NCBI GenBank assembly: GCA_905339405.1
Contig: CAJPGC010000039.1
Span: 15,000 to 78,999, forward strand
Source: an uncultured bacterium
GTDB lineage: Bacteria > Desulfobacterota > GWC2-55-46
Direction: 5' to 3'
Length of the DNA: 64,000 bases
Under the pieces are notes generated by a model. It worked only from the letters and a program-made list of their open reading frames with translations, had not been told where the DNA came from and searched no databases. How positions within the stretch are numbered: position 1 is the first letter of the stretch; every line of letters starts with the position of its first letter. Below are positions 7,135-64,000 of the stretch, one piece after another. The translations under genes were made by a program, and so were the position numbers.

Positions 7135-7212
7135 TTGGTCGGGGCGAGAGGATTCGAACCTCCGGCCCCCGCGTCCCGAACGCGGTGCTCTACCAGACTG
7201 AGCCACGCCCCG
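7135..7212 (-). tRNA. tRNA-Pro (anticodon CGG), CCA encoded
   Basis: Minus strand reads CGGGGCG-TG-GCTC-AGTCTGGT-AGAGC-A-CCGCG-TTCGGGA-CGCGG-GGGCC-GGAGG-TTCGAAT-CCTCT-CGCCCCG-A-CCA. All four stems pair and the anticodon loop is UU-CGG-GA. Closely similar to E. coli tRNA-Pro. Confidence 0.85.
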
Positions 7213-8831: not shown

Positions 8832-10679
8832 CTACTTCACGGCTTTCCCCGGCACCGTGAAATGGAAGGACGACCCGCTGCCCTCGGCTGATTCGACCCA
8901 TATCCTGCCGCCGTGGCGCTCGACTATCCTTTTGCATATCGCCAGCCCCAGCCCGGTGCCGGGATACCTCTTGCCGTGGACGCGCTGGAATATTATGAAG
9001 ACCTTGTCAATGTCCCCCGGGGCTATGCCCACGCCATTGTCCTTCACGGAGAAGACCCAGCCTTCGGCGCTTTCACGGGAGACGACCTCTATGACCGGCT
9101 TCCCGCCGGGCTTCCTGAACTTGATGGCGTTGCCGATGAGGTTCTGCAGGAGGCGGACGAATTGCGCCGGGTCGGCGTAGACAACGGGCAGCTGACCGCG
9201 TTCGACAACGGCCCCGCTTTCTTTTATTGCCGTCGAGAGGTTCTCGAGCGCGCCGTCCAGGACGGCGTTCATATCGACCCTCTCGAAAGCACCGCCAGCG
9301 GTGTTGACTCGCGAGAACTCGAGGAGGTCTTTTATCATGTGCTCCATTCTGGCCGCGCCGTCGACGGCCGATTCCACGAAGCCCTCAGCCTCTTGGTCGA
9401 GTCTTCCGGTAAGCCTCCTTTCTAGAAGACGCAGGTAGCTCGTCACCGCGCGCAGCGGCTCCTGCAGGTCGTGAGAGGCGACGAAAGCGAACTGCTGCAG
9501 GTCGGCGTTCGAACGCGTAAGCTCGTCCAGTACCTTATCGAGCTCCTCTTCGGCCTTCTTCCGCTCGGTTATGTCGCGGTCGATACCCCTGTACCCGCGG
9601 ACGACGCCTGACTTGCCGTAAAAAGGCACGCCGCCGCTTTCGAGCACCACGAGACGGCCGTCCTTCGTCAGGTTCCTGTTCTCAAGGTTTGAGAACGGCT
9701 CGGCCGCGCCCATCACCTTCGCGAAAAACTCCCTTACCCGGGCCGCCTCGCCCTCAGGCATCACGTCGAAAGGCGTCTTTCCGATGAGCTCTTCGGGTTC
9801 GTACCCGAGGATAGAGCGCACCTGCGGGCTGATATAGCTGTAGACGCCGTTTACGTCGACCTCCCATATGATGTCGTTCGTCGTCTCGACGAGGTTGCGG
9901 AACCGCTCCTCTTCGGCCATTATGGCTTCCCGCGCCTTCATGCGCTCGCGTATGTCGACGCTGCCCCTTCGGTAGGCGAACCCTATGCCAGCCATGCCCA
10001 GGACCCAGACGAGCAGATGCGAAGAGACGATAGTGCGGTCAAGCATCGTCTCCTTGGCGAGATAGGGCTTCATCGGCAGAGACACGCTTACACCTCCGCG
10101 AATGTCCCCCACCTTATAACCCTGATGGGCGTGGCACTTGAGGCACCCCTCCTGCGTGACCATCGGCTGCATTAGACGCAGATAAGGCTGCCCGCCGATT
10201 TTCGTGAACTCGACCTTCTCTTTGACTGCCCTGTTCTCGAATGACTTGAGGGCCTCCGCCTCCCAAGCGTCGGGTCTGTTCGCCGGGTTAAGGGGGTTCA
10301 GGCTCGTTATGTGGCCCTTTACGCCGTAAAGCTCGCTGTATTCGGCCATTGCCTGCTTCATGATATAGGCCGGGTTCATGAGGGTGAGCTTCTTGCCTGA
10401 AGGGAGCTCGATGTCCCTGTCGGGTATGTGGCTCAAGTAGGGGTTTGGCGGGGTAGTCTCACTGGGCGGGACGTAAACGCCGCCGTGGTTTGTCGCCCAG
10501 AAGCGGAACGCCTGGTCCTTGTTGAAGGTCGTCAATGCCTCCATTTTGGCCAGCTCGCGGGTATGGTCCCGCACCTGGCGGAGGTTCACGCCCACGGACG
10601 CCCCGGCAAGGGCCGTAAACGCGATTACTATGACGGCGGTCAGCCGCCTCAAATTGTAATATGTCCCTTTACTATGCAT
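8832..10679 (-). CDS. Sensor histidine kinase with a periplasmic DUF3365/Tll0287-like domain carrying a CxxCH haem-c motif, then PAS, HisKA and HATPase_c
   Basis: TM segment near the N-terminus. CLKCH (CxxCH) sits in the predicted periplasmic domain. A PAS domain follows (NDIIWEVD...), then the H-box (FVASHDLQEPLR) and N/G-boxes (GNAIKF.., GTGLGLAICKRIVERHGG). The likely start is the internal ATG (MHSKG...) with RBS GGAG; the longer ORF runs to 10727. Confidence 0.75.
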   Translation of the reverse strand: MHSKGTYYNLRRLTAVIVIAFTALAGASVGVNLRQVRDHTRELAKMEALTTFNKDQAFRFWATNHGGVYVPPSETTPPNPYLSHIPDRDIELPSGKKLTLMNPAYIMKQAMAEYSELYGVKGHITSLNPLNPANRPDAWEAEALKSFENRAVKEKVEFTKIGGQPYLRLMQPMVTQEGCLKCHAHQGYKVGDIRGGVSVSLPMKPYLAKETMLDRTIVSSHLLVWVLGMAGIGFAYRRGSVDIRERMKAREAIMAEEERFRNLVETTNDIIWEVDVNGVYSYISPQVRSILGYEPEELIGKTPFDVMPEGEAARVREFFAKVMGAAEPFSNLENRNLTKDGRLVVLESGGVPFYGKSGVVRGYRGIDRDITERKKAEEELDKVLDELTRSNADLQQFAFVASHDLQEPLRAVTSYLRLLERRLTGRLDQEAEGFVESAVDGAARMEHMIKDLLEFSRVNTAGGAFERVDMNAVLDGALENLSTAIKESGAVVERGQLPVVYADPAQFVRLLQNLIGNAIKFRKPGGKPVIEVVSRESAEGWVFSVKDNGVGIAPGDIDKVFIIFQRVHGKRYPGTGLGLAICKRIVERHGGRIWVESAEGSGSSFHFTVPGKAVK

Positions 10680-15042: not shown

Positions 15043-15352
15043 TGATTTGACTACCCCGGCAAGATGTAGGGCCATTATATAGATTATCGGGGCATGAATC
15101 AACCGCAAACCTTAAAGACAGCGTGGAAAAACCGGCTTCGAAAAAAACAATACAGTATTTACAGCTGGCTGAACGGACAAGGCGGTTGTCAGGGGATGTT
15201 ATCAATGGGAAAAACGGGACGCATTTGAGTGAGCAGGTAAGCTCTTTGAACATCGCTCACTCAGGCCGCTCAAAAAGTTCTTGATGCGAGTAGCCGGGGA
15301 AACGAGACGAGATGCGTACTCTCATGTACGACGCAAAGCCGGGAGACGGCGG

Positions 15353-17263
15353 TCAGTTGCTGGCCTTCCTCAACGGCTCTGCCCCCTTGGACCTTCGTAT
15401 TATGGCGTCGACCTCTTCGGCGTCGAGAGACTCGTTCACGATTAGCGCGGCGGCGAGGTCTTCGAGGACGCCTTTGTCCCTGTTGAGCATGGCGTCGGCC
15501 CTGCTTTCGGCCTCAAGCAGCATATTCCTTATCTCCTGGTCCATGAGCCACGCCATGTCCTCGCTGTAGCGCTTCTGGACTGAGATGTCCCTGCCGAGGA
15601 ACGGGTGCTCCTCTCCCCTGCCGAAGTTCAAGGGCCCGACCTTGTCGGACATCCCCCACTGGGCGACCATCTTCTCGGCCAGGCCGGTCGCGTTCTTCAG
15701 GTCGTCGTTGGCCCCGGAGCTCACGTCCCTGAATATGAGCTTCTCGGCGGCCCTTCCGGCAAGGGCCACGGCGAGCCTGTTCATCAGGTAGCTCCTCGGG
15801 TAATAATGCCTGTCTTCCTCGGGGACGAACTGGGTCGCCCCGAGCGACATGCCCCTGGGTATTATCGACACCTTGTGGATGGGGTCTGTGTGCGGCAGCC
15901 CCCATGACACGAGAGCGTGGCCAGCCTCATGGAAGGCGGTTATCCTCTTCTCCTGGTCCGAGAAAGTCTCCTCCCGCTTGGAGCCCATTATGACCTTGTC
16001 CATCGCCTCCTCGAAGTCCCTCGTATCTATCTTCTCCTTGCCCTTTTTCACGGCTTCGAGCGCGGCCTCGTTCACGAGGTTTTCGAGGTCCGCCCCGGTC
16101 ATGCCGGGCGTGCCCTTGGCAATCTTTTCCATGTCGACTTCTGTAGAGAGTTTCTTGTTCCGCGAGTGGACCTCGAGGATGGCTTTCCTGTCCTTCCAGC
16201 CCGGCCTGTCTATGACGATATGGCGGTCGAACCTGCCGGGGCGCAAAAGGGCCGGGTCAAGGACGTCCGGCCTGTTGGTAGCTGCTATCAAGATTATCTC
16301 CTCGTGCGGCTCGAAGCCGTCCATCTCGCTCAAGAGCTGGTTGAGCGTCTGCTCCCTCTCGTCGTGGCCGCCGCCGAGCCCAGCCCCGCGCGTCCTGCCG
16401 ACCGAGTCTATCTCGTCTATGAAAATGATGGAAGGCTTGGTCTCCCTCGCCTTCTTGAACATGTCCCTTACCCTGGACGCGCCCACGCCCACGAACATCT
16501 CTATGAACTCGGACGCGCTAATGCTGAAAAACGGCACTCCCGCCTCCCCGGCGGTCGCCCTCGCAAGAAGCGTCTTGCCGGTGCCGGGCGGGCCTATGAG
16601 GAGTATCCCCTTGGGCACCTTCGCCCCGATGGAAGCGAACCTGCCCGGGTTTTTAAGGAAGGCGACAGTCTCCTGCAGCTCGGTCTTGGCGTTCTCGAGG
16701 CCCGCTACTCCGTTGAACGTGACTCCCGGCTTCTTGACGTTGAAGAGCTTGGCCTTGCTTAGCCCGAAGTTGAAAAGACCTCCCTGGCTTCCCTGCCCTC
16801 CCTGCTGGACCCGCCGCATTATGAAGACCCATACGCCTATTATCAGCACCCATGGCAATATGAGCAGGAAGACCTGCCAGAAGCCCGACCCTCCGGAGGG
16901 CTTTACGTCTACCGACACGCCCCGGCTCTCGAATTCGTTCAATATGCCCGGGCCCTGGAACGGCGGCAGGTAGGCGCGGAAATCCATCGCCCTCACGGGC
17001 TCCTGCCCTTTGACCTGGCTTACCGTGACGGGCGAGATGAACTCACCGGAGACCTCCTCGCCCTCTATGGTGACTGAGCTTATGTTCCCGGCCTCGAGCT
17101 GGTTCCTGAACTCGGTATAGGTTATATTGTGGCGGGCGCCCGCGCCGGTGTCTACCGACTCGCCCCACAGGTAGATGAACGCTCCGAAAAGAATAAGGGT
17201 TATCGCTATTTTCCAGGCAGACCCCCTTTGTCCGCCTCCCGCGTATTTCCTTTCATCAGACAT
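15353..17263 (-). CDS. ftsH: ATP-dependent zinc metalloprotease FtsH
   Basis: N-terminal TM segments, AAA Walker A GPPGTGKT, Walker B IIFIDEID, SRH, and the HEAGHAL zinc-protease motif. Confidence 0.95.
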   Translation of the reverse strand: MSDERKYAGGGQRGSAWKIAITLILFGAFIYLWGESVDTGAGARHNITYTEFRNQLEAGNISSVTIEGEEVSGEFISPVTVSQVKGQEPVRAMDFRAYLPPFQGPGILNEFESRGVSVDVKPSGGSGFWQVFLLILPWVLIIGVWVFIMRRVQQGGQGSQGGLFNFGLSKAKLFNVKKPGVTFNGVAGLENAKTELQETVAFLKNPGRFASIGAKVPKGILLIGPPGTGKTLLARATAGEAGVPFFSISASEFIEMFVGVGASRVRDMFKKARETKPSIIFIDEIDSVGRTRGAGLGGGHDEREQTLNQLLSEMDGFEPHEEIILIAATNRPDVLDPALLRPGRFDRHIVIDRPGWKDRKAILEVHSRNKKLSTEVDMEKIAKGTPGMTGADLENLVNEAALEAVKKGKEKIDTRDFEEAMDKVIMGSKREETFSDQEKRITAFHEAGHALVSWGLPHTDPIHKVSIIPRGMSLGATQFVPEEDRHYYPRSYLMNRLAVALAGRAAEKLIFRDVSSGANDDLKNATGLAEKMVAQWGMSDKVGPLNFGRGEEHPFLGRDISVQKRYSEDMAWLMDQEIRNMLLEAESRADAMLNRDKGVLEDLAAALIVNESLDAEEVDAIIRRSKGAEPLRKASN

Positions 17264-17423: not shown

Positions 17424-17575
17424 ATGTAACGCGGCTTCCGCCGCTCTCTGTAACAGGGCTCTACGCGCTTTCTTCCTCCCCACCCGCGAACCTAGCCCCT
17501 GAGGTCGCTTCGCTCCCGACTTCCCCGGCTCGGTTCGCCACTCCCTCCCTTAGGCGCGCTCCGCCCTGTTACGGT
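17424..17575. repeat. Intergenic repeat family A, copy 1 (about 150 bp, long imperfect palindrome with GTAACAGGGC / GCCCTGTTAC termini)
   Basis: Near-identical core (CCCACCCGCGAACCT.GCCCCTGA.GTCGCTTCGCTCC...CCCCGGCTCGGTTCGCC) to copies at 39468-39622 and, reverse-complemented, 53063-53215. Confidence 0.7.
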
Positions 17576-21278: not shown

Positions 21279-24278
21279 TTATTGAAGAGTAAAATAAAAA
21301 GTGGCTCCCCTGTCCTTTTGGCCAATCGCCCAGATCCTGCCGCCGTGCCGCTGGATTATCCTCTGCACGGTGGCAAGCCCTATGCCGGTGCCGGGGAATT
21401 CCATCTCGGCGTGAAGGCGCTGAAAGGGGTTGAAGAGCCTGTCGGCGTACTTCATGTCGAAGCCCGCGCCGTTGTCCCTCACGAAGTAGACTACCGCCCC
21501 GTCCTCAGCCTTCTCCACGCCTACCTCGATGGACGCCTCTTCTTTTTTCGAAGTGAACTTCCAGGCGTTGCCGACGAGGTTCTCCAGCACCAGCCTCAGA
21601 AGGCTCGGGTCGCCTTTGGCCGCCATGCCCTCCGCTATGGAGAACACGGCCCTGCGCCCGGGTTCGGTCTTCCTGAGATCTTCGGCGACGTTCTCCGCGA
21701 ACGCCGAGAGGTCCACATCTTCCCTCGTTATGCCGGTGCGCATCACGTGCGCAAGCTTCAGCAGGGCGTCTATGAGCTGGCCCATTCTCTGGGAAGCCCC
21801 GCTGACCCTCGCCATGTAGTCGCGCCCGGTGGCGTCGAATTTCTCATGGTATTCCCTGAGGAGTATCCTCGTGAAACCGTCGATTATCCTCAAGGGGGCC
21901 CTGAGGTCGTGGGCTACCGAATAGCTGAACGCCTCGAGCTCCTGGTAAGCCTCCTGGAGCTCCTTTGTACGGTCCTCCACCCTGTGCTCGAGCTCTACGT
22001 TGAGCTTTCGTACCTCTTCCTCGGCCCTCTTCCTCTCGGTTATGTCCTGGACCGTGCCGGACATCTTCACGGCCTTTCCCGACTCGTCGAACTCGACCTC
22101 GCCCTGTTCGTGTACTATCCTCTCAACGCCGTTTCCAAGCACTATCCTGTGGTCCATCGAATACGGCTTCCTGTCGCTCAGCGCCTTGCTCACGGAGCTC
22201 ATCACTGACTCGCGATCGTCCGGGTGCACGTAGCCGAGGAAAGCGTCGTAGGTCGCGCCGAACTCCTGCGGGGCCACGCCGAATATCCTGTATATCTCGT
22301 CGGACCAGCGGAGCTCGTTCGTGGCGATGTCCCAGTCCCAGTTCCCTATGTGCGCTATCCTCTGCGCGTTGGCAAGAGAAGCCTCGCTGCTTCTGAGGGC
22401 CGCTTCCGCCGCCACCCTGTCAGTTATGTCCTGGACGGTGCCGGAAAGCTTCACCGGAATATCGTCGATGCATACGACCTCGCCCTCCTCGTGCATGAAC
22501 CTCTCGGCGCCGTCGGGCCTTATTATCTTGTAGTCCATCGAATAGGACCGGCCGGTCGAACAGCTCGTCTCTATGGTCCTCAGTACCATGTCCTTGTAAT
22601 CAGGATGGAGGACCCTCATGAAGTCGTCGTACCCGTTCGTCCATTCCTCTTTCCTGATGCCGAAAAGGGAGTACGTCTCCTCGGACCAGGAGCCTTTCAT
22701 GTTCGTGAGGTCGTACTCCCAGCTGCCCAGCCCCGCTATCCTCTGCGCGTTTGCAAGAGAAGCCTCGCTTCTGCGGAGGGCCTCCTGGGAGCGCTTGAGC
22801 TCGGTTATGTCGGTCGAGATGCCTGCCAGTGCGTACGGCCTCCCGCTCTCGTCCAGCAGCCTGAACTTCACTGAAAGGTATATGCGCCTGCCGTCGAACG
22901 GGACGGTCTCCTCGAACTCCAGCGGAGCGCTCGACTCCAGGGCCTTCAGGTCGTTCTCCCTGAACACGTCCGCCACTTCCCTTGGGAACAGGTCGTGGTC
23001 GGTCTTGCCGCGCACGCCTTCATTGCTTACGTGAAAGAGGGCCTCGAATATCCTGTTTATGAAAATATAGCGGCCCTCAGGGGTCTTCAGGTACACGACG
23101 TTTATCGTGTTGTCCATTATGGCCCTGAACCTCGCCTCGCTTTCGCGCAGGGCCTGGTTCCGTTCCTTGACCTGCCTGGCCATGTTGTTGAACGAGTCCG
23201 TAAGGACGCCTATCTCGTCCTCGCTCTCGACCGGCAGGGATATGTCGTAGTTCCCGGCTGCAATCTCCCTGGAGGACGCGGCGAGCCTGCGGAGCTGCAC
23301 TACAGCGACCCTGTAGAAGAACGCGACGAGCCCGGAGATGAGGGCTATTGCCACTATCATGGTCACCAGGCCGTAAAGCCGTATCTCGCGCACCGGGCGC
23401 AGGGCCTCTTCTGTATCGACCTCGGCGACGAACACCCACCTGTACGGCAGCATGCATATCGAGGAGCCCGCAACGTCAACGCCCCTGTAGTCGGCGTAAT
23501 AGCCGGAGTAGTCCTGCCCCTTCTCGAAGCAGGCCTCCACGGGGGCGCTGGAAACCTTCTGTTTGAGGGGCGGCATCGGCGCAAGCGGGGACTTCGTCAG
23601 CATGAGCCTGTCCCTGTTCACCAGGTAGATGTCCAGGCTTTTGTATGAAGTAAGGGCGCTCCACTTTATGTCTTCCTCCGTCAGCTCAGGAGACCCCATG
23701 AAAACGTCTTCGAGCTTCTCGAGCGTCACGAAGCCGACGATGACGCCCAGGAGCTTCCCGTCGGAGCGGCTGTGCACAGGGGCGGCCACGGCAAGCTCGG
23801 GGACTCCCCTGAGCCCCTTTTCGCGCATTGAAATGGTTATGCCCTCTATCCCGTTCATGAAAAACTCTTCCTCGCTCTGAACGGTCCCGATCGCGCCGCT
23901 GTTCGTGGAGGCGATAGTGACTCCCGAGGTGTTTATGGCGGATATCCTGAAAAAACTCCTCTCAAGCGGGAACTTGTTCGCGATTATATACTCGCTGAGA
24001 AGGCGGCTTTCCGAGGCGTTGGCCGCTACAGCTTTCTCGAACTCGTCCCTTATGACCCCGTCGCTTGCGAAGTCTATGACCCTGTTCCTCATTATCTCGA
24101 AGAAAAGGAATAGTTCTCCGGCCCTGGCCTCGGATATGCTCCTGAGGTCGTCGAGTATTAGTTCCTCTACGTGTTTGCGAGTGGAATTGAGGCTGAGGAA
24201 AAAAGCGATGATGATTGGCAGCAGGACCGCGATGAACGCCAGAAGTATCTTGTATGCGAGGGGGAAGGACCTTTTCAT
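21279..24278 (-). CDS. Membrane sensor histidine kinase (periplasmic sensor domain, HAMP, three PAS, HisKA, HATPase_c); paralogue of 59242-62280
   Basis: TM helix after MKRSFPLAYKILLAF, HAMP (VAVVQLRRLAASSREIAAGNY), repeated PAS cores (AQRIAGLGSWEYD / AQRIAHIGNWDWD), H-box SYSVAHDLRAPLR, G-boxes. Start chosen at MKRSF; the ORF track extends to 24320. Confidence 0.8.
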   Translation of the reverse strand: MKRSFPLAYKILLAFIAVLLPIIIAFFLSLNSTRKHVEELILDDLRSISEARAGELFLFFEIMRNRVIDFASDGVIRDEFEKAVAANASESRLLSEYIIANKFPLERSFFRISAINTSGVTIASTNSGAIGTVQSEEEFFMNGIEGITISMREKGLRGVPELAVAAPVHSRSDGKLLGVIVGFVTLEKLEDVFMGSPELTEEDIKWSALTSYKSLDIYLVNRDRLMLTKSPLAPMPPLKQKVSSAPVEACFEKGQDYSGYYADYRGVDVAGSSICMLPYRWVFVAEVDTEEALRPVREIRLYGLVTMIVAIALISGLVAFFYRVAVVQLRRLAASSREIAAGNYDISLPVESEDEIGVLTDSFNNMARQVKERNQALRESEARFRAIMDNTINVVYLKTPEGRYIFINRIFEALFHVSNEGVRGKTDHDLFPREVADVFRENDLKALESSAPLEFEETVPFDGRRIYLSVKFRLLDESGRPYALAGISTDITELKRSQEALRRSEASLANAQRIAGLGSWEYDLTNMKGSWSEETYSLFGIRKEEWTNGYDDFMRVLHPDYKDMVLRTIETSCSTGRSYSMDYKIIRPDGAERFMHEEGEVVCIDDIPVKLSGTVQDITDRVAAEAALRSSEASLANAQRIAHIGNWDWDIATNELRWSDEIYRIFGVAPQEFGATYDAFLGYVHPDDRESVMSSVSKALSDRKPYSMDHRIVLGNGVERIVHEQGEVEFDESGKAVKMSGTVQDITERKRAEEEVRKLNVELEHRVEDRTKELQEAYQELEAFSYSVAHDLRAPLRIIDGFTRILLREYHEKFDATGRDYMARVSGASQRMGQLIDALLKLAHVMRTGITREDVDLSAFAENVAEDLRKTEPGRRAVFSIAEGMAAKGDPSLLRLVLENLVGNAWKFTSKKEEASIEVGVEKAEDGAVVYFVRDNGAGFDMKYADRLFNPFQRLHAEMEFPGTGIGLATVQRIIQRHGGRIWAIGQKDRGATFYFTLQ

Positions 24279-39467: not shown

Positions 39468-39622
39468 TACCGCGTAACGCGGCTGCCGCCGCTCTCTGTA
39501 ACATGTTCTGCGCGCTTTCCGCCTCCCCCACCCGCGAACCTCGCCCCTGAAGTCGCTTCGCTCCAACAGCCCCGGCTCGGTTCGCCGCTTCCTCCGCAAG
39601 AAGCGCTCCACATGTTACGGCG
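39468..39622. repeat. Intergenic repeat family A, copy 2 (termini GTAACATGT / ACATGTTAC, compensatory to copy 1)
   Basis: Shares the core (CCCACCCGCGAACCTCGCCCCTGAAGTCGCTTCGCTCC...CCCCGGCTCGGTTCGCC) with copies 1 and 3. Confidence 0.7.
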
Positions 39623-49168: not shown

Positions 49169-49649
49169 GATGATAAGGACGGGTTTCGGGTACGACGTAC
49201 ACAGGCTTGTGGAGGGCAGGAAGCTCATTATGGGCGGTGTCGAGGTGCCTTTTGAAAAAGGGCTCCTCGGCCACTCCGACGCGGACGTCTTGCTGCACGC
49301 TATCATCGACGCCCTCATAGGGGCGGCAGGCCTCGGCGACATAGGCAAGCACTTCCCGCCGACAGACAACGCGTTCAAGGACATCTCCAGCATGGAGCTC
49401 CTCAAGCGCACACGGGCCCTGATAGAAGGGAAAGGATACGTCGTCAACAACATCGACTCGACAATAGTCTGCCAGGCCCCGAAGCTCCTCGGCCATATCC
49501 CCGGCATGGTGAAGAACATAGAAGACGCGCTCGGCTTGGCCTCCGGCACGGTGAACGTGAAGGCCAAGACCGAAGAAGGGCTCGGCTTCACCGGCACTGG
49601 CGAAGGCATAAAGGCCTACGCCGTCGCCCTCATCACGGAAAAGAAATAA
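49158..49649 (+). CDS. ispF: 2-C-methyl-D-erythritol 2,4-cyclodiphosphate synthase
   Basis: IRTGFGYDVHRL...GHSDADVLLHAI...DIGKHFP are IspF motifs. It overlaps ispD and gltX, so the three are operonic. Confidence 0.9.
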   Translation: MEFKMIRTGFGYDVHRLVEGRKLIMGGVEVPFEKGLLGHSDADVLLHAIIDALIGAAGLGDIGKHFPPTDNAFKDISSMELLKRTRALIEGKGYVVNNIDSTIVCQAPKLLGHIPGMVKNIEDALGLASGTVNVKAKTEEGLGFTGTGEGIKAYAVALITEKK

Positions 49650-51037
49650 TGCCAAACGTCCGCACAAGGTTTGCCCCCAGCCCCACTGGACGCCTGCACA
49701 TAGGGAACGTCCGCACCGCGCTCTTCAACTGGCTCTTCGCCAAAGAGCGCGGCGGGAGTTTCGTCCTCCGCATAGAGGACACGGACACCGCCCGGAGCCG
49801 CTTCGAGTACGAGCTTTCGATAATCGAAGACCTCAAATGGCTCGGCCTCGAGTGGGACGAGGGGCCTGACAAAGGCGGGGAGTTCGGCCCTTACCGCCAG
49901 TCAGAAAGACGTTCGCTGCACAAGGCGGCCGCCGTGAGGCTCGTGACAGAAGGCAAGGCCTACAAGTGCTATTGCACCAAAGAGCAGCTGGAGGACCTCA
50001 AGTCCGCGCAAATGGCCGCAGGCCTGCCGCCCCGTTATGACGGCAGGTGCAGGGAGCTGGCCCCTGAAGCCATGCAGCCCGGCGCGCCCTTTACCGTCCG
50101 CTTCCGCGTGCCTGAAAAGGACGTGCGAGTAGACGACGGCGTGCACGGCCTTCTGGCATTCGACTCGCGCAACATCGGGGATTTTGTCATAGTCGGCTCA
50201 GACGGGGTCGCGGCCTACAACTTCGCCGCAGTTGTCGACGACGCGCTCATGAACGTCACGCACGTAATAAGGGGCGACGACCACCTCTCGAACACGCCCA
50301 GGCAGCTCCTCCTTTTCGAGGCCCTCGAGTTGAAGGCCCCGGAGTTCACGCACATCCCGCTCGTGCTCGGCCCTGACAAGACGCCATTGTCCAAGCGTCA
50401 CGGCTCTTTTTCGATTGAAGAGATAAGGGCAGGCGGCTTTCTGCCGGAGGCGGTCGTGAACGCGGTCGCCAGGCTCGGCTGGAACCCCGGTGAAAGCCTG
50501 GTGGAGCTTGCCGAACTCGCGCCGCTGTTTTCGATAGATAAGCTCTCGGCGAGCCCCTCGGAATTCAACGTGGAGAGGCTCAAGTTTTACAACAAGGCCG
50601 CGATACAGAAGAGCAAGGCCGAAAGGCTCATCGAGCTCTCTTCGCTTTCTACGGCAGGCGGTCCCGAGGAGACCGAACGCGTGGTCGAGGCCGTCAAGGG
50701 CAACGCATCAGACCTGAAGGAACTGAAAGAGCTCTCCCTTCCATTCTTGACAGAGCCGCAGCCCGGCGAGGAAGAGGAAAAAGAGCTTTCAGAGCCGCAC
50801 GCCAGGGCCGTCGTCAAGGCCTTCAGGCAGGAGCTTGAAAAAATTGAAGCGATAGACCAGGGCTCGTACAAGGAGCTGGTCGAAGCGGTGAAGGCAGCAA
50901 CCGGCGAGAAGGGTAAGCGCCTGTTGATGCCCTTGAGGCTCGCCTTGACCGGCACCCACAGCGGCATTGAGCTGGCCGGGGTTTTGACGCTTCTGGGGAA
51001 AGAACGGGCAGTTCAAAGGCTCAGGAAGTACGAGTAG
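49649..51037 (+). CDS. gltX: Glutamyl-tRNA synthetase
   Basis: RTRFAPSPTGRLHIGNVRTALFNWLFA (HIGH motif) and the KMSKR-type motif LSKRHG. Confidence 0.9.
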   Translation: MPNVRTRFAPSPTGRLHIGNVRTALFNWLFAKERGGSFVLRIEDTDTARSRFEYELSIIEDLKWLGLEWDEGPDKGGEFGPYRQSERRSLHKAAAVRLVTEGKAYKCYCTKEQLEDLKSAQMAAGLPPRYDGRCRELAPEAMQPGAPFTVRFRVPEKDVRVDDGVHGLLAFDSRNIGDFVIVGSDGVAAYNFAAVVDDALMNVTHVIRGDDHLSNTPRQLLLFEALELKAPEFTHIPLVLGPDKTPLSKRHGSFSIEEIRAGGFLPEAVVNAVARLGWNPGESLVELAELAPLFSIDKLSASPSEFNVERLKFYNKAAIQKSKAERLIELSSLSTAGGPEETERVVEAVKGNASDLKELKELSLPFLTEPQPGEEEEKELSEPHARAVVKAFRQELEKIEAIDQGSYKELVEAVKAATGEKGKRLLMPLRLALTGTHSGIELAGVLTLLGKERAVQRLRKYE

Positions 51038-51045
51038 TTTGCTTA

Positions 51046-51172
51046 CTCAGGCTGTTCAAAAAGCTCCATATGCTAGGCGTCGAGGAGCGAGCCGCGGAGC
51101 ATACTTGAGAAGTATGTGAGCAGGCGAGCGACGCTTACAACAACGCAAATGAAACTTTTTCAGCAGCCTGCT
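51046..51172. repeat. Intergenic repeat family B, copy 1 (about 125 bp; terminal inverted repeats GCTGTTCAAAAAGCTCCATATGC / GCAAATGAAACTTTTTCAGCAGC, central hairpin CATACTTGAGAAGTATG)
   Basis: Matches 62990-63112. Flanks and inner GCGTCG/CGACGC stem are conserved, while the central hairpin has a different sequence. Confidence 0.6.
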
Positions 51173-51202
51173 TGATACGAATAATTTTTCAAGGAGTGCC
51201 TT

Positions 51203-52648
51203 ATGACCATAAAACTCTACAACTCGCTCACCAGAAAAAAAGAGGACTTCGAGCCCTCGACCCCCGGCAAAGTCACCATGTACGTATGCGGGCCGACGGT
51301 GTATGCATTGAGCCACATAGGCCATGCCAGGAGCGCGGTATCCTTCGACTCGATACAGAGGTTCCTTCGCTACAGGGGCTTCGAAGTCAAGTACGCGCGC
51401 AACTATACGGACGTCGACGACAAGATAATAAACAAGGCCAATGAAGAAGGCGTGCCTCCGCAGGAGCTCGCGGAGAGGTTCATAAAAGCCTTTGACGACG
51501 ACATGGCCGCCCTTCACGTGCAGCTGCCCGACATCAGGCCGAAGGCCACGGAGTCCATCGAAAAGATAATCAACGTGACAGGCTCTCTCATCAAGAAGGG
51601 GGCCGCCTACGAAATCGACGGCGACGTCTATTATTCCGTCCGCAGCAAGAAAGACTACGGCAAGCTTTCCGGCAAGAACATAGACGACCTCGAAAGCGGC
51701 GCGAGGGTGGACGTTGACGAGCGCAAGAAAGACCCGCTGGACTTCGCCCTCTGGAAGGCGAGCAAGCCCGGCGAGCCCTTCTGGGAGAGCCCGTGGGGCA
51801 AGGGGCGGCCCGGCTGGCACATCGAGTGCACTGCGATGGTCATGGAGTGGCTCGGCGAGACCATAGACATACACGGCGGCGGCAAGGACCTCATATTCCC
51901 GCACCACGAAAACGAGATAGCGCAGTCAGAGGCCGCCACAGGCAAGGCCCCCTACGTGAAGTACTGGCTCCACAACGGCTTCGTGAACATCGAAAAAGAG
52001 AAGATGAGCAAGTCGCTCGGCAACATACTCAACATAAGGGACGCGCTCGTCGACCACACCGCCGAAGCCATAAGGCTCTTCCTCCTCTCCAGCCATTACA
52101 GGTCTCCAATCGACTACACGAGGGAGTCCCTCCGTGACGCCGAATCAGCCGTCGAGCGCTTCTACAAGACCGTCCAGCGCGTCTCGGAGGAGTTCCCCAA
52201 CGTGCTCGAGGCAGAGTTCTGCCATTCGTGCATACAGGACAAGCTCGACGAGGCCTTCTCACCGATGGAGGACGACTTCAACACAGCCGAGGTCGTGGGC
52301 AACCTCTTCAAAGAGATGACCCGCATGAACAAGGCGCTGGACGAAGCCAAGGCCACCGGCAGCAGGAAAGGCGTCTGGGAAGAGCTCTCATACTCGCTGG
52401 GCATAATAAAAGAGGCCTCGAAGTTCCTCGGCATATTCGACCGCACGCCTGAGGAGTACTTCAAAGACAAGAACTCGCGCGCGGCCGTCCCTGCCGAAGA
52501 GGTCGAAAGGCTCATCAACGAGCGCAACGAGGCGAGAAAGAATAAAGACTTCGCAAGGGCCGACGCGATAAGAAAAGAGCTGCTGGACAAGGGCATATTG
52601 CTCGAGGACTCGGCCAAGGGCACGACCTGGAGCGTGAAGACGCAGTAA
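51203..52648 (+). CDS. cysS: Cysteinyl-tRNA synthetase
   Basis: CGPTVYALSHIGHARSAV (HIGH), KMSKSLGN, and zinc-ligand Cys/His residues. Confidence 0.95.
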   Translation: MTIKLYNSLTRKKEDFEPSTPGKVTMYVCGPTVYALSHIGHARSAVSFDSIQRFLRYRGFEVKYARNYTDVDDKIINKANEEGVPPQELAERFIKAFDDDMAALHVQLPDIRPKATESIEKIINVTGSLIKKGAAYEIDGDVYYSVRSKKDYGKLSGKNIDDLESGARVDVDERKKDPLDFALWKASKPGEPFWESPWGKGRPGWHIECTAMVMEWLGETIDIHGGGKDLIFPHHENEIAQSEAATGKAPYVKYWLHNGFVNIEKEKMSKSLGNILNIRDALVDHTAEAIRLFLLSSHYRSPIDYTRESLRDAESAVERFYKTVQRVSEEFPNVLEAEFCHSCIQDKLDEAFSPMEDDFNTAEVVGNLFKEMTRMNKALDEAKATGSRKGVWEELSYSLGIIKEASKFLGIFDRTPEEYFKDKNSRAAVPAEEVERLINERNEARKNKDFARADAIRKELLDKGILLEDSAKGTTWSVKTQ

Positions 52649-52840: not shown

Positions 52841-53062
52841 ACCTCTAATCCCTCTCCTTTGTTGGATAGGAAGTTTTTGGAACTTGTATTTAACACATAC
52901 ACTGTAACAGGACGGTATTTTGGCAAGGCACTTCGAGCGCGACAGCGCGCGAGGTGGAATGGTGGGCACCCCACCCTACCCTCTGAGATTGCTTCGCTCC
53001 GCACGCGATGACAAACCCTCTCCCACAAGTGGAGAGGGTTTTTGCTTTGCCTTTAACCCAGA

Positions 53063-58817: not shown

Positions 58818-59245
58818 GGCCTCCTGTTCAGCTTGAGCCAGTAAGCGCACGCGGCGGTTATCGTGTCGTGGTAGACGTCATAGTCGATGGCCTTCACTAT
58901 GTAGCTGTTCGCTCCAAGCTCGTACGCCCTCGTTATATCGTCCCTCAGCTTCGAGACCGTCAGCATGACTACGGGCACTAACTTCGTCCGGCTGTTCGAG
59001 CGTATCTGCTCGAGCACCTCGAAGCCGTCCACCTTCGGGAGCCTCAGGTCAAGAAGGACGACCTCAGGCAGCTCGGCCGTCTCCCTGCCCTCGTACCTGC
59101 CCGCAGCGAACAGGTAGTCGAGCGCGTCCTGGCCGTCGTAGGCTACCTTTATGGCTTTGCTTTCGAGGCTGCACCCTTCGAGCGCGTGCTTCGTGAGCTC
59201 GACCGCCTCAGGGCTGTCCTCGACCAGAAGGATCCTGCCAGTCAT
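58811..59245 (-). CDS. Single-domain response regulator (CheY-like receiver)
   Basis: ILLVEDSPEA...VVLLDLRLPKVDGFEVL...KLVPVVMLT...SYIVK has the canonical acidic pocket. Its start overlaps the kinase stop by 4 nt. Confidence 0.8.
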   Translation of the reverse strand: MTGRILLVEDSPEAVELTKHALEGCSLESKAIKVAYDGQDALDYLFAAGRYEGRETAELPEVVLLDLRLPKVDGFEVLEQIRSNSRTKLVPVVMLTVSKLRDDITRAYELGANSYIVKAIDYDVYHDTITAACAYWLKLNRRPY

Positions 59246-62200
59246 CGGCCTTTCCCCTTTTGAAGAGTGAAATAAAAAGCCGCTCCTTTTCCTTTTTCTC
59301 CATCTGCCCAGACCCTTCCTCCGTGCCTCTGCACTATACGCTTCACGGTGGCCAGACCGATGCCCGTCCCTGGAAATTCATCCTGGGAATGGAGCCTCTG
59401 GAACGGCTGAAAGAGCCTTTCCGCGTGGGCCATGTCAAACCCCACGCCATTGTCTTTTACGCAAAAAACCTCCCAGCCTGCCTCTTCGCCGCACCTCCTG
59501 AACTCGATGAACGGCTCGTCTTTTTTCGAGGTGAACTTCCAGGCGTTCCCCAGGAGGTTCTCGAGCACCATCCTCAAAAGCTTCTCGTCCCCCCGCGCGG
59601 CCAGGCCTTCTTCGATAATGAAGTTGCTCTTTTTTTCAGGGTCGGCCTTTTCAAGGTCTACGGCGATTGCCATAGCGACGGCGCTCAGATCGACTGAGGC
59701 GGTCACGACCTCTGCCCTCATCACGAACGAGAGGTTCATGAGGTCGTCTATGAGCTGCCCCATCCTCTTTGACGAAGCCCTGATGCGCTCCAAATGGTCC
59801 TGGCCGTCCCTGTCGAGCCTGTCGCGCTGTTTTTTGAGGAGCAATAACGTAAACCCGTCAATGAGCCGCAAAGGCGAGCGCAGGTCGTGGGCCACGGAAT
59901 AGGTGAAGGTCTCTATCTCAGTCTTGGCCGCCGCGAGGTCCTCGTTGGCGCGCTTCAATTCCAGCGTCCTCTCCTCTACCCTGTGCTCCAGCTCCCTGTT
60001 GAGCTTCACTACCTCGTCCTCCGCGAGCTTCCTCTCGGTTATGTCCTGGACGGTGCCGTCCATCCGTACCGTCTTGCCCGAGGGGTCCCTCACGACCTCG
60101 CCCTGGAAGTGCACGATGCGCTCGCCGCCGTCCCCCCTCTTTATCCTCGCGTCGACCGAGTAGGCCCTTTCCTTGTCAATGGCTTCCCTGAACCTCATTA
60201 TTACGGCCTCCCTGTCGTCGGGGTGCACGGAGGTGATTATCGACTCATAATTGGCAAGCTCCCCGGCGCGCCTCCCGAATATCCTCAGGACCTCGTCTGA
60301 CTTGTACACCTGGTCCTTTTCAACGTCCCATTCCCAGTTGCCTATGTGGGCTATCCTCTGCGCCTCGCGAAGGCTCTGCTCACTTTTTTTCAATGCCTCC
60401 TCGGCGTTCTTGAGGTTCGTTATTTCGGTCGACACGCCGCACACGGCATACGTCTTACCCTTCGTGTCCTTCAGGGGGAACTTTATCGAGATGTACGAAT
60501 GAAAGCCGTCCTCGAGCGGGAGCGCCTCCTCGAACTCCATCGGCCTGTCGTACTCGAGGACCTTCATGTCGCTCTTTTCGAACTCCGCAGCAATCCGTTC
60601 GGGGAACAGCTCCCGGTTCGTCCTGCCGTAGATAGCCGCCTTGCTCCTGCGCGCAACAATCTCGAAGAGCCTGTTGACGAATATGTGCCTTCCCTCGAGG
60701 TCCTTCATGTAGACCACGTTTCCCATGTTGTCGAGGATGGCCCTGAACCTCTCCTGGCTCTCGCGCAGCGCCTCCTCGGCTTTTTTTCTTTCGGTGATGT
60801 CGACGATGCCGGCTATCGCGCCCCTGTACTCTCCGGCCTCCATCAACGGAGCGGCGGAGACCGTGGCATAGAGCCTGCTGCCGTCTTTTTTTATGTATTC
60901 GTTGTCGACGACCTCCCTTACTCCCCTGCGCTTGAGATCGAGCCTTTCCATGGTGAACTTTTTCCTTTCCTCGTCCATGAAGTCGAAAAGGCTCCTCCCC
61001 ATCATCTCGCTCACGGTGTACCCGAGCATCTCCGCCATCTTCGGGTTGACGTAGGTGGTGACGGCGTCCGCGTCAATCACCCATATCCCTTCCTGGAGGT
61101 TTTCCACGAGCATCCTGTACCTCAGCTCGCTTTCGGCAAGGCTCTTCTGGCTTTTTACAAGCTCCCTCTGCCTCTCGAGGACGCTTTCGGCCATGACGTT
61201 GAAGGAAGAGGCAAGCTGACCTATCTCGTCCCTTGTCCTCACCGGCACCCTTATTTCGTAGTTGCCAGCGGCTATCTCGCCCGCGCCCGCCGCCAGCGTC
61301 CTCAGGTGCCTTACAATGACCCTTATGAAATAAAAAACGAGGCCGCCGATGAGCGCCGTCACCAGTATGATGACCGAGAAGGAATAGCGGTGGCTTCTCG
61401 TGAGGGGGGCGAAGACCTCCTCACGGTCGACCTCCGCGACGAGCGTCCAGCCGAGCGAGGGCATGCACATCGAAGCGCCGGCGACCATTTTCCCCCTGTA
61501 ATCGGGATATATCCCGGTTATCTCCCTGCCGCGCTCAAGACACTCCCTTACAGGGAAGGTATCGACCTTCTGCTTCAACACCGAGCCCGGGACGTACCTC
61601 GAAGGAGTAATGAGGAGCTTGTCCCTGTTCACCAGGTATATCTCGAAGGTGTCCCACCTGCCCCATTCGCTCCAGCTCAGGGCCCCAAGACGCCTCATGT
61701 ACTCTCCGGTGAAGAACTCGACGAACTTGGAAAGAGGCACGAACCCTGTGATGACCCCGAGCACCTTTCCTCTTTCGACGCGGCTATATATCGGCGCCGA
61801 CACCGCCAGCTCCGGGCCGAACTTGGTGACTATCTCGGCTACCGAGACTACCTTGAGCCCGTTCCTGAAAAACTCCTCTTTTGAGACGTCCTCTCCCTCC
61901 ATGCCCGGCGCTGTCGAGGCAAGGACGTGCCCGTCGGGCGCGGTTATGATGTTTAGCCGGTATATCTCCTTGAATATCGGGAGCTTGTGGAGCCTCATGT
62001 ACTCGCCCAGGATCCTTCCCGCTTCCTTGCCCTGGATGCGCTCCAGCGAATTCACTATGAACCCGTCGCTGGAGAAGTCCTGTATCCTGTACCTGTTCAT
62101 CTCCATGTACATGAGGATGTTGGACTCGCTCTCGTCGGCGTTCTGGCGCAGCTCTCTTATGATGAGATTTTCAATCTCCTTCCTGTCGTTCTCGAACATT

Positions 62201-62280
62201 ATCGAGATGACCGCCAGGATTGGCAGAAGGATCACGATAAAGGCTATGATGACCTTGTATAATAATGAAAAACGGCGCAT
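59242..62280 (-). CDS. Membrane sensor histidine kinase (periplasmic domain, HAMP, multiple PAS, HisKA, HATPase_c); paralogue of 21279-24278
   Basis: Same layout and several near-identical blocks as the 21279-24278 kinase (AQRIAHIGNWEWD, FTYSVAHDLRSPLR, LENLLGNAWKFTSKK). Start chosen at MRRFSLL with GGGAG 10 nt upstream; the ORF track extends to 62364. Confidence 0.8.
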   Translation of the reverse strand: MRRFSLLYKVIIAFIVILLPILAVISIMFENDRKEIENLIIRELRQNADESESNILMYMEMNRYRIQDFSSDGFIVNSLERIQGKEAGRILGEYMRLHKLPIFKEIYRLNIITAPDGHVLASTAPGMEGEDVSKEEFFRNGLKVVSVAEIVTKFGPELAVSAPIYSRVERGKVLGVITGFVPLSKFVEFFTGEYMRRLGALSWSEWGRWDTFEIYLVNRDKLLITPSRYVPGSVLKQKVDTFPVRECLERGREITGIYPDYRGKMVAGASMCMPSLGWTLVAEVDREEVFAPLTRSHRYSFSVIILVTALIGGLVFYFIRVIVRHLRTLAAGAGEIAAGNYEIRVPVRTRDEIGQLASSFNVMAESVLERQRELVKSQKSLAESELRYRMLVENLQEGIWVIDADAVTTYVNPKMAEMLGYTVSEMMGRSLFDFMDEERKKFTMERLDLKRRGVREVVDNEYIKKDGSRLYATVSAAPLMEAGEYRGAIAGIVDITERKKAEEALRESQERFRAILDNMGNVVYMKDLEGRHIFVNRLFEIVARRSKAAIYGRTNRELFPERIAAEFEKSDMKVLEYDRPMEFEEALPLEDGFHSYISIKFPLKDTKGKTYAVCGVSTEITNLKNAEEALKKSEQSLREAQRIAHIGNWEWDVEKDQVYKSDEVLRIFGRRAGELANYESIITSVHPDDREAVIMRFREAIDKERAYSVDARIKRGDGGERIVHFQGEVVRDPSGKTVRMDGTVQDITERKLAEDEVVKLNRELEHRVEERTLELKRANEDLAAAKTEIETFTYSVAHDLRSPLRLIDGFTLLLLKKQRDRLDRDGQDHLERIRASSKRMGQLIDDLMNLSFVMRAEVVTASVDLSAVAMAIAVDLEKADPEKKSNFIIEEGLAARGDEKLLRMVLENLLGNAWKFTSKKDEPFIEFRRCGEEAGWEVFCVKDNGVGFDMAHAERLFQPFQRLHSQDEFPGTGIGLATVKRIVQRHGGRVWADGEKGKGAAFYFTLQKGKGR

Positions 62281-62436
62281 CGGGTGCATTCTCCCTTGCC
62301 TTATAAGAGGGGCTGGACGCAGAACCGGATATTCCGAGTCTACAGTAACAAAGCCCCGTGTCAATGGCCGCCGTTGTGCCTTTCGTCACATACTTCCCGG
62401 GCCCGCGGGTGTAGATTCGACTGATAAAATGCAGGA

Positions 62437-62940
62437 GTGTCGCTCATGAAAAGATATCTGCCAGTTCTCGGCGCCGGGCTCCTTTTCGCGGCCCTTTGCG
62501 CTTCTCCGGCGAAAGCGGAGGTGAACATAAACGTAGGCATAGGCATTCCGCCTATTGTCGTATCAGCCCCTCCTGCGGTCGTCGTCATCCCCGGGACTTA
62601 CGTCTATATCGCCCCTGACATCGAAGAGGACGTCTTTTTCTACAGGGGCTACTGGTGGCGCTCTCACGGCAAGAGATGGTACAGGTCCAGCGACTTCGGA
62701 GGCCCCTGGATATACATAAGCATAGAGAGGATGCCGAGGGCTATAATCCACCTGCCCCCGCGCTACAAGGAAAGGCACTCCGGCCTCGACCGGATGGACC
62801 ACGTCCACGTGAAGAAGCACTGGAAGAAGTGGGAGGCTGAAAAGCACTGGGACAGACACGAATCATGGAAGAGGCACAAGAAGGAGCACAAGGAACACAG
62901 GAAAGAACATAAGAATAACGGGAAACACGGGCGCGACTGA
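62437..62940 (+). CDS. Secreted hypothetical protein with a His/Lys-rich C-terminal tail
   Basis: Signal peptide (LLFAALCASPAKA). The low-complexity basic tail HKKEHKEHRKEHKNNGKHG suggests metal or nucleic-acid binding. No assignable family. Confidence 0.5.
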   Translation: MSLMKRYLPVLGAGLLFAALCASPAKAEVNINVGIGIPPIVVSAPPAVVVIPGTYVYIAPDIEEDVFFYRGYWWRSHGKRWYRSSDFGGPWIYISIERMPRAIIHLPPRYKERHSGLDRMDHVHVKKHWKKWEAEKHWDRHESWKRHKKEHKEHRKEHKNNGKHGRD

Positions 62941-62950
62941 TAAAAAAACA

Positions 62951-62984
62951 AAGCCCCGCTGCCGTAAGGCAGCGGGGCTTTTTA
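62951..62984. terminator. Rho-independent terminator (AGCCCCGCTGCC-GTAA-GGCAGCGGGGCT then TTTTT) after the secreted-protein gene
   Basis: Perfect 12-bp stem read directly, with an A-run on the other side (bidirectional). Confidence 0.65.
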
Positions 62985-62989
62985 CATTT

Positions 62990-63112
62990 CAGGGCAATGT
63001 GAGGCTGCTCAAAAAGTTCCAGATGCCAGGCGTCGAGGAGCGAGTATTGCGGCGTACTCTCTCTGTTTGTACGCCGCAATTACGAGCGACGCTGACAACG
63101 ACGCAGATGGAC
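62990..63112. repeat. Intergenic repeat family B, copy 2 (central hairpin ATTGCGGCGTAC...GTACGCCGCAAT)
   Basis: Conserved flanks match 51046-51172. The central stem differs in sequence but pairs perfectly, which is compensatory. Confidence 0.6.
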
Positions 63113-63132
63113 TTTTTGTGCTGCCGCAGGGC

Positions 63133-64000
63133 TTAGCAGTCGTAGTACAGATAGAACTCGTACGGCACCGGGCGGAGCCTGATGGGGTCGAGCTCGGCTT
63201 TCTTCTTGTACTCTATCCAGGTGTCGATGACGTCCTGGGTGAAAACGTCTCCCTTCAGGAGGAACTCGTGGTCGGCCTTCAGGGCGTCGAGGGCCTCTTC
63301 GAGGGAGCCGCAGGCCGAAGGTATCTTGGCGAGCTCTTCGGGAGCGAGCCCGTAGATGTCCTTGTCGAGCGGCTCGCCCGGATGTATCTTGTTCTGTATG
63401 CCGTCAAGGCCGGCCATGAGCATGGCCGCGCAGGCCAGGTAGCCGTTGCAAGACGGGTCGGGGAACCTCACCTCTATCCTCTTGGACTTGGGCGAGGGCG
63501 AGTACATCGGTATCCTGACGGACGCGGAGCGGTTGCGGCTCGAGTACGCGAGGTTGATGGGGGCCTCGTAGCCTGGCACCAGACGCCTGTAGGAGTTCGT
63601 GCCGGGGTTGCAGAACGCGTTCAGGGCCCTGGCGTGCTTCAGTATGCCGCCTATGTAGTACAGGGCCAGCTCGCTCATGCCGCCGTACTCGTTGCCCGCG
63701 AACAGGGGCTTGCCGCCCTTCCATATTGACTGGTGGACGTGCATGCCGCTGCCGTTGTCGCCGAATATGGGCTTGGGCATGAAGGTGACGGTCTTGCCCC
63801 ACTTCTTCGCGACGTTCTTCACTATGTACTTGAACCACATGAGCTTGTCGCCCATCCTGACGAGGCTGTCGAAACGCATGTCTATCTCGGCCTGTCCGGC
63901 GGTGGCGACTTCGTGGTGCTGCCTCTCGACGCGTATGCCGACGCTCTCCATGACCATGCTCATCTCGGAGCGGATGTCTTCCTGGCTGTCGGTCGGGGGG
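63133..64000 (-). CDS. glnA: Glutamine synthetase type I, C-terminal portion (the gene continues beyond the window end)
   Basis: [30 protein letters not shown]...[40 protein letters not shown] is the GSI catalytic/C-terminal signature. Confidence 0.9.

Follow-up and report, generated by a model that had tools for sequence, protein, structure and literature searches.

In a 64,000-nt stretch of DNA from an uncultured bacterium (contig CAJPGC010000039.1, positions 15,000 to 78,999; hereafter the window), the spacer between gltX and cysS is largely filled by a repeat of about 125 bp that folds into one long hairpin, and a homologous copy lies next to glnA. The locus raises the question of whether such an element is an RNA signal belonging to cysS or a piece of mobile DNA that came to rest there. 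The original prediction took the repeat for a functional RNA or DNA structure and considered that the spacer copy might double as a terminator or attenuator in the place of a cysS leader. [quoted passage not shown] The family is apparently undescribed and very abundant in groundwater and soil bacteria.

Family members and their insertion signature

When species-representative genomes were scanned with an exact pattern, 10 loci from five related metagenome-assembled genomes (MAGs) proved to hold the element; the remaining nine matches were chance occurrences in coding sequence. A covariance model (CM) built from 12 copies then turned up more copies in the same loci, some of them divergent, and a looser pattern applied to metagenome contigs gave at least 120 loci, nearly all with a full-length model match (43-142 bits). 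The full-length copies number more than 130; their sources are related 'Deltaproteobacteria' MAGs and metagenome contigs that are high in GC and Methylomirabilota-like. The copies are 125-160 nt long, non-coding and dispersed in multiple copies, often two to four in a few kb, with a GC content of 0.49 to 0.72, and they are polymorphic for presence and absence. The window CysS falls into a cluster of at least 90% identity with the CysS of 'Deltaproteobacteria bacterium GWA2_54_12', and the proteins beside high-GC copies have their best named matches in Methylomirabilota, Methylomirabilales and NC10 (61-70% identity). From these matches, the family would span a GWA2_54_12-type clade and Methylomirabilota-like organisms, the latter assignment being approximate. 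Neither Rfam nor the searchable literature on MITEs and IS5, Chunjie, Rokubacteria repeats and the terminal-repeat strings held a description of the family, and a BLAST search of PLSDB plasmids with a high-GC copy returned one weak partial match inside a Cupriavidus coding gene, which is not a family member.

Alignment of the flanks revealed an extra left module, L0, in most high-GC copies and in several low-GC ones. Full-length members run from a 4-bp target through L0 (CAGGMTGCTGAAAAAC), a short spacer, L1 (CAGGCTGCTCAAAAAGG) and a variable paired region with a conserved apical GGCGTAC-loop-GTACGYY hairpin to R1 (CCTTTTTCAGCAGCCTG) and the same 4-bp target; a typical example reads CTAG, CAGGATGCTGAAAAAC (L0), spacer, CAGGCTGCTCAAAAAGG (L1), interior, CCTTTTTCAGCAGCCTG (R1), CTAG. 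L0 is the reverse complement of R1, clearly so in 45 copies, and L1 nearly repeats L0, with C in place of G at position 10. The hairpin of about 125 nt consists of L1 paired with R1 and all that lies between them; in other words, the right transposon end is set against its own inverted copy.

The flanks of the 45 copies show which sequences are targeted. The right flank is CTAG in 22 copies, CTAA in 5 and TTAG in 2, the left flank is CTAG in 13 and TTAG in 5, and the same 4-mer stands on both sides in 14 copies. Non-palindromic direct repeats, of which about 0.5 matches would be expected from 4-mer frequencies by our own arithmetic, flank five copies: CTAA/CTAA (loci L112 and L110, the latter with an L0 match scoring slightly below the cut-off for the 45-copy set), TTAG/TTAG (L100-850 and L129) and TTGA/TTGA (L093). 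These cases fit a 4-bp duplication better than the 2-bp TA duplication of IS630-type elements, which was rejected. A Py-T-A-Pu (YTAR) tetranucleotide follows R1 in 54 of 134 copies and immediately precedes L1 in only 2 of 134. Therefore, L0 is the true left end, and the mobile unit extends from L0 to R1 (about 155-160 nt) and is not the hairpin alone.

This signature is that of the IS5 group of insertion sequences (ISs), which duplicate 4 bp at Py-T-A-Pu targets, CTAG being the commonest (15 of 24), followed by CTAA and TTAG (3 each; PMC5493358). Like family B, IS5-group ISs and MITEs have terminal inverted repeats of about 16-17 bp, and their MITEs are small, non-coding and multi-copy, with polymorphic sites. 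According to the proposed mechanism, the unit would be moved in trans by an IS5-type DDE transposase, which would bind to the terminal repeats, move the unit by cut-and-paste into YTAR sites and duplicate 4 bp; the targets would mostly be CTAG, very often overlapping a TAG stop codon. A contig from IMG/VR carries a different MITE (L160:671-822) with perfect 17-bp CAGGCTGCTGAAAAAGG terminal repeats and TTAA/TTAA duplications, whose interior of about 150 nt is non-palindromic and unrelated to family B. Judging from these shared ends, at least two types of element would be moved by one and the same presumed enzyme.

Some copies of family B are tandem or clustered: two abut in L114:108-374, four lie within 1.5 kb in L122:1205-2673, and in L059:2351-2700 a variant copy has its centre swapped for an unrelated GC-rich sequence. 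This suggests insertion into or beside existing copies.

The window copies and the gltX-cysS junction

Two homologous copies with shared outer arms and an inner GCGTCG/CGACGC stem, as originally predicted, are indeed present in the window, except that the second covers 63001-63125 and not 62990-63112, i.e., it lies about 12 nt further right. Copy A (CAGGCTGTTC...CAGCAGCCTG; about 123 nt) occupies the 165-nt gltX-cysS spacer, and copy B (GAGGCTGCTC...GTGCTGCC) has the terminator of a plus-strand open reading frame (ORF; 62437-62940) on one side and the stop codon of the minus-strand glnA on the other (Table 1). They have in common the outer arms (GCTGYTCAAAAAGYTCCA and ACTTTTT..GCWGCC), the inner GGCGTCG/CGACGCT stem and most of the remainder. 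Exactly two instances of the 16-mer GGCGTCGAGGAGCGAG are present in the window and a left-arm 18-mer matches five times, against 0.22 expected by chance; both are far commoner there than in shuffles. Each copy folds into one long hairpin, at -50.6 kcal/mol (z -4.46) for copy A and -57.4 kcal/mol (z -5.22) for copy B, and none of 200 shuffles was as good in either case. A third, degenerate copy keeps the left arm AGGCCGCTCAAAAAGTTC and a GCGTAC..GTAC centre; its right arm is gone where a minus-strand ORF apparently ends.

Neither copy A, whose flanking 4-mers are TACT and CTTG, nor copy B has L0 or a target duplication, a point that we return to when weighing the MITE reading. Because they lack both, and because copy A also has several arm mutations, with A at three right-arm positions that are G in the consensus and in the relative L142 (GCAAATGAAAC versus GCAGATGGGGC), copies A and B are most likely immobile relics. 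Directly after copy B comes GCAGGGC and then TTAG (63126-63136), in which TTA is the glnA stop codon on the minus strand; the position of copy B next to this stop fits the family-wide abutting of stop codons through the YTAR target.

By comparing the orthologous gltX-cysS regions of relatives, with the identity of their CysS to that of the window as a guide, we found that in L146 (82%) the two genes are 17 nt apart with no element between them. Family B is also missing from the spacers of L145 (86%) and L143 (93%), which contain a C-rich hairpin repeat of another kind. In L144 (91%) a family-B element with a type-1 centre is present, apparently at the same site and with similar left flanks. 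The element of L142 (98%) occupies the same site but has lost its entire interior (CCATATGC joined to AGATGGGG), and another repeat, of about 115 nt, is nested in its T run. The site is polymorphic: it is empty, filled with another centre, or deleted in the centre. No clean empty site that would define the duplication was found for gltX-cysS or for an ispF-gltX insertion in L143, the flanks being too diverged. The gltX of L145 also ends in RLRKYE* though this locus has no element; therefore, this C-terminus is native, and an origin of the last gltX codons from the outer repeat L0 is ruled out. The polymorphic site, the missing L0 and duplication and the arm mutations together mark copy A as a decaying lineage-specific insertion, which would have entered a formerly tight gltX-cysS junction. 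On these sequence comparisons, a conserved cysS leader is excluded.

It is thus very improbable that copy A serves cysS as a dedicated cis-regulatory leader or attenuator. It takes up most of the spacer and folds stably, but the orthologous spacers of close relatives are empty of it (L143, L145 and L146) or hold it with the interior deleted (L142), the same element stands at more than 130 unrelated loci, and there is no Rfam leader or T-box match. With Rfam 15 at the gathering threshold, the single match in the whole window was a tRNA; at E values up to 10, the region 50950-51260 gave chance-level matches only, all under the gathering scores. A consensus scan for simple terminators called neither copy A nor copy B. 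In both folds the U5 run is itself paired with the A5 run within the long hairpin, and neither copy offers the short GC-rich stem-loop followed by a U tract that characterizes intrinsic terminators. The idea of a functional RNA, terminator or attenuator serving as cysS leader is not supported, given this combination of a polymorphic site, occurrence in both orientations, mobile-DNA ends, and negative Rfam and terminator searches.

On the predicted fold, the inner stem together with U5 may act in a terminator-like way. The right end of copy A and its flank form a weak sigma-70-like match 18 nt upstream of the cysS ATG, and a putative hybrid promoter for cysS, created by the insertion, is possible. 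Any effect of copy A on transcription would be incidental; the read-through transcript of gltX could contain a stable hairpin between A5 and U5, transcription could end there in part, RNases could process the RNA, or the hybrid promoter could weakly drive cysS.

Table 1. Features of the window that bear on the family-B copies
Feature	Position	Strand	Evidence or remark
Third, degenerate copy	15258..15382	+	direct-repeat family; CM 24.1 bits, E 5e-4
gltX, upstream of copy A	49649..51037	+	TIGR00464, 483 bits
Copy A, hairpin core (inner left arm L1 to R1)	51048..51170	+	CM 116.8 bits, E 3e-30
Copy A, left outer arm L1, CAGGCTGTTCAAAAAGC	51048..51064	+	internal inverted copy of R1
Copy A, central hairpin CATACTT-GAG-AAGTATG	51100..51116	+	rare 'type 2' centre
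Copy A, right terminal inverted repeat R1, ACTTTTTCAGCAGCCTG	51154..51170	+	same repeat bounds the unrelated L160 MITE
Weak sigma-70-like match TTTTCA-17-AATAAT	51157..51185	+	9/12 matches; 1 site vs 0.2 expected
cysS, downstream of copy A	51203..52648	+	TIGR00435, 557 bits
Canonical bidirectional intrinsic terminator adjoining copy B, outside the repeat	62950..62981	.	14-bp stem, 10 GC pairs, T runs on both strands
Copy B, hairpin core	63001..63125	+	CM 133.9 bits
Copy B, central hairpin ATTGCGGCGTAC-loop-GTACGCCGCAAT	63046..63080	+	majority 'type 1' centre, 12 bp perfectly paired
glnA, 3' part, stop codon 8 nt past copy B	63133..63963	-	TIGR00653, 439 bits

Two other small repeats were noticed at this junction. 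The C-rich hairpin repeat (CCCCTCCCTCGATGGGAGGGGATAGAGGGGAGGG) lies in the gltX-cysS spacer at L143:1880-1925, L144:1795-1830 and L145:1895-1945, and has no match in the window at up to 3 mismatches; its presence in three relatives makes the spacer a hot spot for several small repeats. The repeat of about 115 nt (GAAGCTCCCAGCGGCAAGCCGCAGGGAGCTTCGAAACCTAAGG...GCTATGGGTTT) occurs at L142:1850-1960, L141:3300-3445, L027:~2095-2130 and L139:~11060-11100, and sits inside several family-B copies, within the T run of their right terminal repeat and at CTTTTT^CAGC each time. Its GGAGCTTCGAAACC resembles a tRNA T-arm, and the sole near match in the window is the tRNA at 7139-7212.

Covariation, strand asymmetry and competing readings

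The hairpin is conserved as a structure. A MAFFT alignment of 125 copies was folded by RNAalifold into a single long hairpin, in which standard pairs fill 95.6% of cells, compared with 88.0% in shuffles; both sides have changed at 18 of 30 pairs (10.1 in shuffles) and in 196 cells (44 in shuffles). None of 500 shuffles matched the observed values, and slid controls gave just 30-45% pairing. The structural part of the original prediction is thereby supported. In the apical helix GGCGTAC/GTACGYY, 98.3% of cells are paired, with G:C, G.U and A:U states and a few double changes, namely GCGTAG/CTACGC, GCGTAT/ATACGC and GCATAC/GTATGT (copy A and L003), so the centre is not a variable insertion devoid of conserved pairing.

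As for the two window copies, both central hairpins pair as predicted (CATACTT/AAGTATG in copy A, ATTGCGGCGTAC/GTACGCCGCAAT in copy B), but they are not of unrelated sequence. The copy A centre aligns with the lineage CGGAGCGTAC..GTACGTGAGCA (L030, L037, L036 and L055) and differs from this lineage by one compensatory G:C to A:T change (GCGTAC/GTACGT to GCATAC/GTATGT); the same centre is found unchanged in L003, a locus of another MAG. Judged by this alignment, the centres of copies A and B are homologous but diverged, and copy A resembles a mosaic of two subfamilies. The centre is lost or replaced in a few copies (L008-4908, L029, L090/L022, L059-2658 and L142). In L014:3582-3709, four substitutions turn four G.A mismatches (GGAGCGAG/CGAGCGAC) into Watson-Crick pairs (GGCGTGAG/CTCGCGCC), which hints that an alternative pairing register of the inner helix may also form.

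The strength of the covariation, outer arms included, favours a reading in which the hairpin core is a selected RNA module spread by transposition, i.e., a bidirectional terminator, an insulator, an RNase III site or an mRNA-stability element, which at gltX-cysS would attenuate read-through into cysS. We consider this reading unlikely. The GC-rich stem flanked by A5 and T5 tracts in both orientations also speaks for it, as do the RNA-level effects known for the MITEs Correia, ERIC and SPRITE (PMC10969869). The gene context, taken from rough gene calling in 77 cases, bears on it from both sides. The element (E) stands between convergent genes in 23 cases (>E<), between divergent genes in 4 (<E>) and between co-directional genes in 50 (<E<, 35; >E>, 15). 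The enrichment at convergent gene ends would suit such a module; together with the depletion at divergent ends, it is also usual for MITEs and REPs. Both orientations occur, and in the co-directional contexts the strand that folds more stably is the one transcribed less often (15 versus 35). In 50 of 84 copies a long ORF on the opposite strand reaches its end at the R1 side, in 31 of 84 one on the same strand does so at the left side, and the TAG stop codon of the gene is often the CTAG target itself.

Relative to genes, the orientation is biased about 2:1 (34 antisense-only versus 17 sense-only copies, p = 0.024). Pairing is kept alike in sense and antisense copies (0.957 versus 0.934 of pairs, p = 0.16). 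Their strand asymmetry is likewise the same, which points to inherited family traits and not to local selection. Many copies lie a few nucleotides from the ribosome-binding site of the next gene in apparent operons, where a strong terminator would do harm. The two orientations, the equal pairing and the proximity to ribosome-binding sites argue against an orientation-locked cis-acting RNA and fit a tolerated DNA parasite. The individual loci add to this: the gltX-cysS copy is missing or has lost its interior in close relatives, copy B adjoins a canonical terminator of its own, and the terminator scan passed over both window copies.

The asymmetry between strands is pronounced. With RNA parameters the model strand is the better-folding one in 123 of 134 copies, ahead of its complement by about 8 kcal/mol on average, and with DNA parameters it is so in 127 of the 133 copies that differ, because the mismatches on the model strand are G.U pairs and tandem G.A mismatches, such as CAGATG in the same orientation on both arms. 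Among apparently recent departures from pairing, G.U outnumbers A.C (64 versus 36). The more stable model strand and the G.U excess count in favour of an RNA module. Strand-specific folding under both parameter sets would also suit mobilisation as single-stranded DNA in the manner of REPINs or PATEs, by an HUH or RAYT-type enzyme for which CTAG would be the target or cleavage tetranucleotide, without any duplication. The conserved apical stem GCGTAC/GTACGC with a free loop of 3-11 nt, which suits recognition of a hairpin over that of a duplex, and the orientation bias lean the same way. However, the non-palindromic direct repeats around five copies and the TTAA duplication of the L160 element are signs of a staggered cut and are unlike IS200/IS605, and clear 16-17-bp terminal inverted repeats are foreign both to IS200/IS605 elements and to REPs. 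No GTAG or CGTC tag runs through the family, CGTC being confined to the low-GC subfamily, and no RAYT or TnpA gene was noticed beside any copy. It seems that mobilisation as single-stranded DNA is improbable, more so than the RNA module.

Several observations weigh against the MITE reading. In addition to the missing ends of the window copies, no autonomous IS or transposase gene with these terminal repeats was found in about 1 Mb of locus sequence and the window. Since no parent IS is at hand, the target duplication is what carries the assignment to the IS5 type. Candidates for such a parent were discarded in turn: solo terminal-repeat matches were truncated copies, copies at contig ends or chance matches; the L109 end leads into a P-type ATPase gene with no transposase; and terminal-repeat pairs 0.4-4 kb apart were merely neighbouring MITE copies. 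A scan of viral contigs gave 26 chance matches and one related MITE (L160), and the literature on the terminal-repeat strings yielded nothing relevant. For a MITE found in hosts of 50-72% GC, the interior is conserved to an unusual degree. L1 also covaries with R1, for instance CAGGCGGCT with AGCCGCC and CAGGATGCT with AGCATCCTG, which transposase recognition alone does not explain; L0 tracks R1 less closely than L1 does. The covariation of L1 with R1, the strand asymmetry, the G.U excess and the orientation bias suggest some constraint on the single-stranded form.

One way to accommodate these points is a strand-specific structured module, of RNA or single-stranded DNA, that an IS5-type MITE has spread over at least two phyla and that selection on folding maintains. 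Recognition would then go through the GGCGUAC stem, the tandem G.A mismatches and an AA/AACRNN internal loop, and the module could serve between genes as an insulator or processing signal that travels with the element, or the element itself could depend on the hairpin to propagate. We hold this to be unlikely, to about the same degree as the RNA module. Much of the covariation, the strand asymmetry and the G.U excess may go back to the founder copy, or may arise when the two arms of a snapped-back palindrome correct each other.

Known elements and other repeats of the window

ERIC sequences are imperfect palindromes that form one long hairpin; they are intergenic, often co-transcribed, present in both orientations and conserved in sequence across genera. 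TA-type targets have been reported for them, with no 4-bp YTAR duplication, and Correia elements duplicate TA. To our knowledge, REPs have neither terminal inverted repeats nor a target duplication. IS5-type MITEs, together with long palindromic intergenic repeats such as ERIC and Correia, are nearest in kind to family B. The distance from the IS5 group lies in three features: the link is the insertion signature only, with no parent IS or transposase with these ends found; family B has a second, internal left repeat, which turns its right two-thirds into the hairpin of about 125 nt; and its interior is conserved and covarying, unlike that of IS5-group MITEs.

At about 127 bp, ERIC (also IRU) agrees with family B in length and in class of repeat (PMC3184786); its hosts, Enterobacteriaceae and Vibrio, are different, and the two are set apart here by description, not by sequence. 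Correia-type MITE repeats also form stable transcript hairpins and can act on termination, processing and promoters (PMC10969869), but they belong to organisms unrelated to the hosts of family B, which is known here from sequence alone. Chunjie of Geobacter uraniireducens Rf4 is likewise a delta-proteobacterial MITE with a stable fold, inserted inside an operon that it left intact (PMC3184786, PMC10969869). With its length of 178-235 bp, A+T-rich composition, 21-bp terminal repeats and 9-bp direct repeats (PMC3184786), Chunjie was rejected as a match and represents a different family. REPs and REPINs share with family B the high copy number, the extragenic palindromes and a strand-specific hairpin; REPs are given as 20-40 bp with a GTAG or CGTC tag (PMC3733652). 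Family B, in contrast, is 125-160 nt long with terminal repeats and 4-bp duplications, and no tag is conserved across its subfamilies. Readings as a T-box or other leader, a REP/RAYT system, an integron attC site or a retron fail on anatomy, on lacking partner genes and on the target duplication.

For annotation, this means that long covarying intergenic hairpins in these uncultured lineages should not be taken for riboswitches, leaders or small-RNA genes. The family seems highly abundant both in contigs of Methylomirabilota-like organisms (Rokubacteria/NC10) and among members of the 'Deltaproteobacteria GWA2_54_12' clade, and it could mark recent genome dynamics and DNA exchange between these co-occurring groups. 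Since the element inserts beside TAG stops and in tight operon junctions such as gltX-cysS, its insertions amount to a natural experiment in the tolerance of operons towards hairpins of 50-80 kcal/mol. The strand asymmetry and arm covariation also pose a modest question on how palindromic mobile elements are maintained.

Further repeats were seen in the window apart from family B. A separate short repeat (CCCCACCCGCGAACCT.GCCCCTGA.GTCGCTTCGCTCC) stands at 17478-17516, 39526-39564 and 52962-53000, the first two being 95% identical; it is probably the 'family A' of the original prediction, and a related GATTGCTTCACTTCGCTCGCAATGAC motif lies upstream of the element in L143. Blocks that are 70-80% identical recur with a spacing of 381-384 nt at 21300-23200 and 59300-60800, and also at 9540-9960, 19880-19940 and 22000-22810. 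Those at 59.3-60.8 kb lie inside a minus-strand ORF for a PAS-domain histidine kinase of 1040 aa (59242-62364), and those at 21.3-23.2 kb look like a putative paralogous sensor kinase with tandem PAS modules.

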